DNA from: Shigella phage Sf19
DNA length: 64,000 bases
Sequence record: MF327005
Reading direction: 5' to 3' (one strand)
The notes below the pieces were generated by a model. It made no database searches. It saw nothing but the letters and a program-made list of their open reading frames with translations, and was not told the origin of the DNA. Shown piece by piece: positions 13,916 to 14,044 of this stretch. The position numbers were made by a program, and so were the translations under genes. How positions within the stretch are numbered: position 1 is the stretch's first letter; every line of letters starts with the position of its first letter.

Positions 13916-14044
13916 ACAGAAGACCGTTTACAGCAAACAATAAACAATCTATTTCTCTGGTAAAGAAAAGGCGAAGGTTCGATTCCTTCACACGTTACGG
14001 CGTGTTGGTGTAATGGAAGCACTTAAGATAAATACGGTCTGGTA
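13916..14044 (+). ncRNA. structured element D: terminal stem of A-C family enclosing a permuted tRNA-like module (candidate Y-RNA-like ncRNA)
   Basis: cagaagaccgt...acggtctggt termini; internal GAAGG-TTCGATT-CCTTC T-arm, acacg-ttacgg-cgtgt closed acceptor-like stem, gtg-taatGGaag-cac D-arm-like hairpin. Confidence 0.55.

Follow-up and report, generated by a model that had tools for sequence, protein, structure and literature searches.

Element D is a 126-nucleotide (nt) element on the plus strand (13918–14043) of the window, the 64,000-nt stretch of DNA from Shigella phage Sf19 (record MF327005) that was analyzed here. The interior of D is a circularly permuted transfer RNA (tRNA) and not a tRNA gene. 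By analogy with the known Ro60–Y RNA particles, D is best read as a YrlA-like Y RNA of a divergent, DUF2828-type phage Ro60 protein, and as the tRNA-mimicking member of a group of four RNAs, with a probability of about 0.7. The structure of D covaries and carries the features of a tRNA elbow, the protein encoded nearby has a Ro60 fold, and gene and RNA are associated across phages in a strand- and position-specific manner. These results point to a phage counterpart of the Ro60–Y RNA particle that is widespread and, at the RNA level, has not been described before. Phage Sf19 is a Felix O1-like myovirus (Ounavirinae, Mooglevirus-like) with 97% identity over this region to Shigella phages Sf15 and Sf17.

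The ends of D are held together by a terminal stem of 7 base pairs (bp), in which the 5′ strand AGACCGU (13921–13927, preceded by A-A(G)) pairs with ACGGUCU (14034–14040); the 3′ strand and its conserved GG(U) tail (14034–14043) form the CUG end. The conserved box UUACAGCAA (13928–13936) is single-stranded and appears unpaired in the minimum free energy (MFE) fold. The 5′ region of D reads CAGAAGACCGUUUACAGCAA. The first hairpin of the interior, UUUCU-CUGGUAA-AGAAA (13952–13968), resembles an anticodon arm and is followed by AGGC (to 13972), the equivalent of a 4-nt variable loop. A perfect T arm, GAAGG-UUCGAUU-CCUUC (13973–13989), leads into an acceptor-like stem of 6 bp, ACACGU/GCGUGU (13990–13995 with 14000–14005), which is closed by the tetraloop UACG (13996–13999). 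The connector U-G (14006–14007) is equivalent to U8-N9 of a tRNA and precedes a D arm, GUGU-AAUGGAA-GCAC (14008–14022), with a 4-bp stem and a 7-nt loop. Both the T arm and the D arm appear in the MFE fold. On this predicted structure, D should fold as a tRNA-like elbow without a free acceptor end.

An earlier sequence-only reading of this stretch had proposed that the interior follows the arm order of a tRNA with the acceptor ends joined, and the T arm, closed acceptor stem, U8 and D arm are all found on the plus strand. The T-arm sequence given there is correct, and its position is shifted by one nucleotide from 13972–13988. The acceptor-like hairpin, drawn there with 5 bp and a hexaloop, is present and is better described by 6 bp and the UACG tetraloop; the D-arm-like hairpin with its GG dinucleotide is likewise present and is now read as the stem GUGU/GCAC with a 7-nt loop. 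The terminal stem agaccgt/acggtct was also recovered at its full 7 bp. The suggestion that this stem replaces the anticodon stem was not borne out: the anticodon-arm-like hairpin, which had been overlooked, still lies on the 5′ side of the T arm, at precisely the position taken by the anticodon arm and variable loop ahead of the T arm in a tRNA, and the terminal stem is part of an independent scaffold common to three other elements. Pairing of the T and D arms with other regions, named in that reading as the outcome that would count against it, was not seen, and the MFE structure keeps every described hairpin.

The same reading held that D is not a tRNA gene on either strand, and ARAGORN calls none in the native order. 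The Rfam tRNA model scores 28.8 bits on D (gathering score 29) through the anticodon-like arm, the T arm and an imperfect acceptor with two mismatched pairs, while the D region is degenerate in that alignment. A re-ordered sequence was assembled in silico (5′ acceptor strand, U8-G9, D arm, hairpin, AGGC, T arm, 3′ acceptor strand); from the segments of the window type and from those of the Felix type alike, ARAGORN then called a 74-nt tRNA-Thr(GGU) cloverleaf. This sequence is canonical in having U33, A37 and the anticodon GGU, and according to ARAGORN the only tRNA-Thr anticodon in the surrounding tRNA array is UGU, as would suit a genuine permuted gene that is processed to a decoding tRNA-Thr(GGU) in the manner of Cyanidioschyzon merolae. 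That D is such a gene is, however, very improbable. It has no CCA, the UACG-closed acceptor offers no room for end processing, and the anticodon-like hairpin, 80–83% paired across the family, has been lost from the Moogle type, while its loop in tootiki-type phages is 6 nt long. Decoding would also need circularization to join tRNA positions 26 and 27, and no such pathway is known in bacteria. Constructs with shuffled hairpins were also often called by ARAGORN (12/30 vs 24/30), and the un-permutation test therefore supports the geometry of the acceptor, D and T elements and not the anticodon arm.

A 161-nt query containing D was covered to at least 80% in 245 phage records, all from Felixounavirus or Mooglevirus and 77–99% identical to the window. 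The D region in these records is blank or carries small "hypothetical protein" calls. Ten Ounavirinae variants of D were aligned using MAFFT. The box UUACAGCAA, the T arm and the D arm are invariant among them, and the acceptor-like helix is 100% paired with three of its seven pairs changed on both sides. Three fully compensated acceptor-like stems occur: ACACGU/GCGUGU as in the window, ACUCGGC/GUCGAGU in the Felix type, where the loop has 4 nt, and ACCCUUC/GAAGGGU in the Moogle type, where the loop is GCCAAACA. The Moogle-type element (locus L002 3018–3143 from Citrobacter phage Moogle; also L003 and L006) has a 7-bp acceptor-like stem, and in its loop G-CCA-AACA a discriminator and CCA are separated from the 5′ acceptor strand by a short spacer, an arrangement that resembles a tandem-tRNA junction. 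By analogy with the YrlA RNA of Mycobacterium smegmatis, the Moogle-type D might be cut by RNase P.

D could in principle be a functionless relic, either a decayed tRNA or the junction of two tandem copies of one tRNA that have lost their outer halves. The Rfam tRNA score, the tRNA-Thr(GGU) call on the un-permuted sequence, the pseudo-tRNAs annotated nearby in relatives and the invariance of the T and D arms within the clade would all agree with such an origin. A relic is nevertheless improbable, as D is kept in 245 genomes and its acceptor-like stem exists in three different fully compensated versions. In addition, unrelated phages have the same arm order within the same scaffold, built from other stem sequences and always found on the strand of the Ro60-like gene.

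The least probable of the alternatives is that the D region encodes small proteins, as annotated in some relatives (bas63_0137/0138; Phi87_08, minus strand). Open reading frames (ORFs) of 32–57 amino acids overlap D in the window, and hypothetical proteins are annotated in several records. The strand, frame, length and start codon (mostly TTG or GTG) of these ORFs differ, however, between close relatives, which makes a coding role of D unlikely; indels are not multiples of three, and the substitutions follow the pattern of compensated stems. The annotated minus-strand "hypothetical proteins" bas63_0137 and bas63_0138 (L086 2583–2857; Bas63, MZ501086.1) and Phi87_08 (L004 2983–3240) lie over D and the next structured RNA. 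They are probably mis-annotations, given that the ORFs are not conserved between relatives.

The terminal stem of D belongs to a separate scaffold that is common to four elements of the window. The exact words AGAAGACC and GGTCTGGT bracket four plus-strand intervals, A, B, C and D. Element A (13208–13276) lies between tRNA-Glu and tRNA-Met, has the termini AGAAGACC...GGTCTGGT and carries the box UUACAGCAA; element B (13371–13437) lies between tRNA-Met and tRNA-Asn and has the frame of D without the insert; element C (13829–13903) has the exact termini, carries the variant box AUUCAGCAAG and is conserved in relatives. A, B and C are 67–75 nt in length and consist of the scaffold only. A, B and D start with CAGAAGACCnnUUACAGCAAAC, and the frame of all four can be written as AAG-ACCnn-UUACAGCAA...nnGGU-CUG-G, with the variant box in C. 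The scaffold is a 5′-AAG, the 7-bp terminal stem, the single-stranded box directly after the 5′ strand, and a 3′-CUG. Element B has A/U-rich filler where D has the tRNA-like insert, and since B is the frame of D with another filler, D is modular, composed of scaffold and insert. The UUACAGCAA box is presumed to be a protein-recognition motif.

Two covariance models were used for searches. Model R1 was built from the ten Ounavirinae D sequences, and 730 kb was searched at E ≤ 10. Model R2 describes the scaffold only and was built by model-guided alignment from a seed of distant-phage elements without any Ounavirinae sequence; MAFFT left the 3′ strands of the short scaffold elements out of register and was not used for it. 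With R1, scores of 147.5, 40.5 and 29.7 bits were obtained for D, B and A, respectively. With R2, the same elements of the window scored 48.9 bits (E 9e-6), 46.1 bits (E 3e-5) and 33.5 bits (E 1e-2). Element C of the window was detected by neither R1 nor R2, and its Moogle counterpart scores 24 bits with R1.

The protein partner proposed for these RNAs is encoded by the ORF at 11455–12870 on the plus strand, 165 nt upstream of the first tRNA gene; D lies 1.05 kb downstream of this gene on the same strand. The product of 471 amino acids contains the Pfam domains DUF2828 and DUF7788, is not a TROVE protein by sequence, and is annotated in some records as "RNA-binding protein". An AlphaFold2 model calculated from 34 homologues (predicted local distance difference test score 88.6) has a helical-repeat domain of the ring type followed by a vWA-like domain with a MIDAS (metal ion-dependent adhesion site), and the residues characteristic of this site are invariant. 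In a Foldseek comparison with the PDB, the top 11 matches are all Ro60/TROVE proteins aligned over their full length, and the second-best of these is the Ro60 protein of Thermus phage phiLo. DUF2828 is also found in mimivirus-like and plant proteins. DUF5681, encoded by the upstream neighbor in Ounavirinae, was considered as an RNA partner and is not favored, as it is not a conserved neighbor elsewhere.

The Sf19 protein is the orthologue of bas63_0130. Its product, Bas63 gp130, was reported to have a Ro60-like structure and to counter the Ppl defense system, and Y RNAs were guessed in the same 2024 preprint to be among the "tRNA genes" beside it, with none identified (bioRxiv 10.1101/2024.10.10.617714). 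The Ppl phenotype is the sole functional datum for this system and concerns the protein and not the RNAs. A survey of the literature on DUF2828, PF11443 and the box sequence returned no relevant prior description, and a catalogue of structured phage RNAs mentions neither Ro60 nor Y RNA (PMC10690425).

The association of gene and RNA was followed in 80 viral loci with relatives of the protein, of which 65 are distant (38–45% identity; unrelated, mostly large phages). In a pattern scan of the 65 distant DUF2828 loci for a stem, the core UnCnGCA(A/C) and a CUG or CCG end, 62 elements were obtained on the strand of the gene and 3 on the opposite strand; at least one element occurs in 34 of the 65 loci, and 48 of the 62 elements lie within 1.5 kb outside the gene. 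A stricter pattern gave 40 elements on the gene strand and 0 on the opposite one. A scan for stem and core without the CUG tail has a high background (239 vs 185), and the specificity thus comes from the full combination of features only. Model R1 returned 66 matches, 63 of them on the gene strand. For model R2 the corresponding count is 50 of 52, and the two exceptions are doubtful rows of its own seed. Counting detection by either model or pattern, one or more elements are present in about 46 of the 65 distant loci, usually immediately next to the gene on either side.

The terminal stems differ wholly between lineages (AGACCGU, AGGAUAG, GAAUGG, UAGGCUUC and AGGUUCC, among others), and the box and the AAG...CUG ends persist, with the box core UnCnGCAA kept in distant phages. 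The same gene–RNA pair thus occurs in many unrelated phages, and on that basis the DUF2828 proteins and their RNAs look like a second, sequence-divergent Ro60–Y RNA branch. In 17 of 60 distant loci the DUF2828 gene is accompanied by tRNA genes, and these always share its strand. At L067 10287–10706, a few kb downstream of the DUF2828 gene and its Y-like element, there is a phage transfer-messenger RNA (tmRNA; 78.6 bits), accompanied by several tRNAs.

The tRNA-like insert itself recurs in distant phages. Full-length D-type elements were identified with R1 at L022 4371–4510 (60.7 bits, E 9e-11) and 4745–4882 (41.5 bits), L043 6943–7070 (41.2 bits), L071 4115–4244 (40.9 bits), L028 4860–4988 (35.2 bits), and L071 3075–3212, among others. 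Those of L022, L028, L043 and L071 overlap no tRNA called by ARAGORN, and L022 has no tRNA within 5 kb. The arms are built from different sequences in different lineages: the T stems include GCUGG/CCAGC, GCAAG/CUUGC, GUGGG/CCCGC and CUAGG/CCUAG, the D stems include GCUC/GAGC and GUCU/GGAC, and the distant acceptor-like stems have 7 bp and loops of 5–19 nt. The T loop UUCGAnU, the D loop A-R-U-G-G-n-A and the pair G53-C61 are constant, and the base at the position of U8 is U in 16/16 rows of the arm table. The elbow nucleotides U8, A14, G18-G19, A21, U54-U55-C56 and A58, together with G53-C61, are kept in 15 elements from five phage lineages. A few elements have the T and D arms without the acceptor-like stem.

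Covariation was evaluated in 33 model-aligned matches, where 93.8% of the cells are paired, compared with 63.4% in shuffles (0/500 reach the observed value) and at most 53.5% in slid controls; double changes occur in 28 of the 29 pairs. A cleaned set was restricted to the 15 D-type elements that overlap no ARAGORN tRNA. Here, pairing is 98.7% for the T stem, 96.8% for the acceptor-like stem, 98.3% for the D stem, 96.5% for the terminal stem and 80% for the extra hairpin, and pairs changed on both sides are found in the T stem (4/5), the acceptor-like stem (7/7) and the terminal stem (7/8). When the relatives are folded one by one, the MFE structures for the most part retain the terminal stem along with the T arm and acceptor-like stem.

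The scaffold also carries inserts of 110–240 nt that are not tRNA-like. These were observed at L065 6389–6500, L069 6385–6497, L052 6393–6542, L054/L055 6393–6526, L058 6420–6554, L066 6461–6593, L076 3567–3704, L034 4793–5032, L041 6524–6765 and L075 6119–6359. They are partly conserved between loci: one hairpin class contains ...GAGAAGAGAGGU..., and a class of about 240 nt is common to L034, L041 and L075. The comparison of these sequences suggests several kinds of effector module on one handle.

Several observations weigh against the assignment of D as the Y RNA of a Ro60-like protein. In the Pfam scan of the protein, DUF2828 and DUF7788 appear and TROVE does not, and neither phmmer nor the profile of 34 homologues retrieved Ro60 from the PDB sequences; with these sequence searches blank, the likeness to Ro60 is one of fold comparison only. 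On the RNA side, the Rfam YrlA model gives no match to D (13900–14060) at E ≤ 10, and the Rsr-binding motif of YrlA, GNCGAAN0-1G, is absent from the 5′ region of D. D is not significantly stable in thermodynamic terms (z = −0.85). The minus strand reaches a slightly better value (z = −2.66) but shows no tRNA-like features, and all of the comparative signal is on the plus strand. The T and D arms never vary within Ounavirinae, and their covariation is a matter of cross-lineage comparison only. The 33-row alignment was fitted to the model, four of its rows overlap genuine tRNAs, and the differences between the arms of separate lineages may in part reflect separate captures of different tRNAs and not compensation in place. 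Finally, about 19 of the 65 distant loci contain no element that these detectors recognize.

D is embedded in an array of 25 tRNA genes (13036–18487, plus strand; ARAGORN), whose strand it shares; it lies where tRNA-Asp and tRNA-Lys are 426 nt apart. Two sigma-70-type promoter-like sites precede the array of tRNA and noncoding RNA genes on the plus strand: TTGACA-17-TAATAT (12889–12917, 10/12 positions) and TTGACA-18-TATAGT (12979–13008, 11/12 positions), both identified as consensus matches only. No terminator-like site was found on the plus strand between these sites and position 14400. A further promoter-like match that overlaps the 5′ end of D (13913–13941, 9/12) was rejected, as it is weak and absent from distant relatives.

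This setting raises the alternative that D is a cis-acting processing or punctuation element that guides cleavage of the tRNA operon transcript by RNase P, RNase Z or RNase E. D does share its strand with the tRNA genes on either side, the sequences that flank it are similar to the array's spacers, the Moogle-type acceptor loop starts with G-CCA and continues with a 4-nt spacer as in a tandem-tRNA junction, and the YrlA RNA of M. smegmatis is cleaved by RNase P (PMC4201824). A processing element is nonetheless unlikely: the 4-nt loop that closes the acceptor in the window leaves no leader for RNase P, the scaffold and D-type inserts accompany DUF2828 genes also at loci such as L022, which has no tRNA within 5 kb, and the sequence-conserved single-stranded box is left unexplained.

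As a YrlA-like Y RNA, D would be the product of a noncoding RNA gene of about 125 nt that is co-transcribed with the phage tRNAs. The nucleases responsible for processing the flanking tRNAs would probably also cut elements A–D out of the array transcript. By analogy with Ro60–Y RNA particles, and YrlA in particular, the scaffold would bind the Ro60-like protein. The closed permuted tRNA domain may then act as an effector module that engages a factor that recognizes tRNAs, for instance a modification enzyme, RNase P, a nuclease or a component of a defense system. Such a module could bring the factor to the protein or keep it away, in RNA surveillance or in counter-defense. The assignment would turn the guess of the 2024 preprint into four defined candidate RNA genes, one of them with a YrlA-type permuted tRNA domain, and a new protein-proximal motif. 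It bears on the role of the tRNA-like domain of Y RNAs and on how phages protect or police their tRNA pools, and it implies an annotation correction for about 245 genomes.

Other structured sequences occur in the same array, all on the plus strand. The 146 nt between D and tRNA-Lys (14046–14191) have a folding energy of −49.5 kcal/mol (z = −5.07, 0/200 shuffles) and a closing stem of about 22 bp; RNAalifold on five Ounavirinae sequences gives 40 pairs, 8 of which show compensatory double changes, and there is no Rfam match. This interval is probably a further unannotated structured RNA of the array. The interval 15131–15198, in the gap before a 134-amino acid ORF (15216–15620), scores 32.6 bits with the Rfam tRNA model (above the gathering score of 29), is not called by ARAGORN and may be an unusual or degenerate tRNA. 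A tRNA-Tyr-like sequence at 13598–13678 (22.8 bits) is missed by ARAGORN and is annotated in relatives as tRNA-Tyr(GTA) or as a pseudo-tRNA. A weak match to the Rfam permuted tmRNA model (14443–14629; 28.4 bits, E 0.008, gathering score 47) extends from inside tRNA-Ile into the 278-nt gap that follows and is probably driven by the T arm. At gathering thresholds, nothing but tRNAs is found by Rfam across the window. An Rfam YrlA match at 17423–17546 (21.6 bits) was rejected because it spans tRNA-His and tRNA-Phe, a known tandem-tRNA artifact unrelated to D.

The permuted tRNA genes of C. merolae and the permuted tmRNAs are processed to functional RNAs with a free CCA end. D resembles these genes, and two-piece or permuted tmRNA, in that the 3′ part of the tRNA lies upstream of the 5′ part and the acceptor strands are linked. 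It differs in that its acceptor stays closed by UACG, it has no CCA, and its anticodon-like hairpin is not conserved. In addition, D is broken between its D arm and its anticodon arm, and an unrelated stem, that of the scaffold, holds the ends together.

A closer counterpart of D is found in the bacterial YrlA RNAs (RF02553), and the sequence-only reading had pointed to Y RNA models as a check. The lead was a good one: D is laid out like YrlA and has a Ro60-like protein encoded next to it. The YrlA model itself is silent on D. In YrlA, the 5′ and 3′ ends pair as a protein-binding stem around an extra (V) hairpin, the T arm, an acceptor-like stem-loop and the D arm. More than 250 bacteria and 22 phages have such a gene, close to that for Ro60 and on its strand (PMC4201824). 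D has the same order of T arm, acceptor-like stem-loop and D arm inside a stem of the 5′ and 3′ ends. To judge from its sequence, it also carries the tRNA-invariant nucleotides U8, A14, G18-G19, U54-U55-C56 and A58 that would make the elbow contacts. It is encoded within a few kb of a gene on the same strand whose product is Ro60-like by fold and lies outside the TROVE family by sequence. As with YrlA, several Y-like RNAs are present per locus with the tRNA mimic in some of them only. The Rfam YrlA model matches the distant relative at L022 4767–4877 with 38.2 bits (E 2e-6; gathering score 69). In contrast, where YrlA has GNCGAAN0-1G, D has the UUACAGCAA box, unpaired and placed behind the 5′ strand, along with the AAG...CUG termini; the neighbor of D is a DUF2828+DUF7788 protein that is Ro60-like by fold only, and the RNAs are embedded in a tRNA operon. 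Since the protein family, the binding motif and the genomic embedding differ, D would work like a YrlA-type Y RNA without being a member of the curated YrlA family.

The Ro60 protein of Thermus phage phiLo was demonstrated experimentally to bind the adjacent RNAs Yrl1 and Yrl2 and to recruit the polynucleotide phosphorylase (PNPase) of the host (PMC12135203; PDB 9KOP, 9L5Y). Both systems combine a phage protein of Ro60 fold with tandem adjacent genes for Y-like RNAs, and the phiLo system is proposed to hijack PNPase against defense. Unlike the Sf19 protein, phiLo Ro60 is recognizable as a TROVE protein by sequence, and its Yrl RNAs have the CGAA motif, with no tRNA-like module reported (PMC12135203).

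The scaffold of A–D also resembles the Class I RNAs of dictyostelids (RF01414). A Class I RNA starts with AAG, continues with a variable stem of 6 bp, an 11-nt box CCUUACAGCAA after the 5′ strand and a variable middle, and ends with CUGU; these RNAs are about 60 nt in length, form tandem clusters and were reported to be unique to Dictyostelia (PMC7919456). They are transcribed from their own Dictyostelium upstream sequence element (DUSE) promoter about 60 nt upstream, and their known direct binder is the RRM protein Rnp1A (PMC7919456). The phage scaffold likewise starts with AAG, has a variable stem with the box nnUUACAGCAA directly behind its 5′ strand, and ends with CUG(U) after a middle part rich in A and U; both kinds of RNA are about 50–65 nt in length and occur in tandem clusters. 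Four bases that never vary in the phage box, C, C, A and A, are among the positions that are near-invariant in Class I (U3, C6, C9, A10 and A11). Of the Rfam models other than tRNA, RF01414 scores best on the scaffold elements, with 25.3, 21.3 and 17.6 bits for B, A and D, respectively; elsewhere it gives 20.9 and 16.6 bits in L069 (one match at 6567–6695) and 18.5 bits at L022 4889–4937. These matches are full length, have the exact boundaries of the elements and lie on the strand of the gene, and all are below the gathering score of 41.5. The phage RNAs differ from Class I in length, at 67–75 nt for A–C and 126 nt for D, which is twice as long through its insert, and in belonging to a phage of Enterobacteriaceae and to a presumably sigma-70-driven tRNA operon instead of having a DUSE promoter. 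That the two scaffolds are the same RNA module is a tentative and rather doubtful proposal drawn from their sequences, a lead and not a finding. If it is true, the Class I RNAs, an abundant orphan class of noncoding RNA, would be eukaryotic counterparts of a DUF2828/Ro60-like ribonucleoprotein that is widespread in phages, with a DUF2828 protein as their core partner, and a second, ancient lineage of Ro/Y-type ribonucleoproteins would span viruses and eukaryotes.

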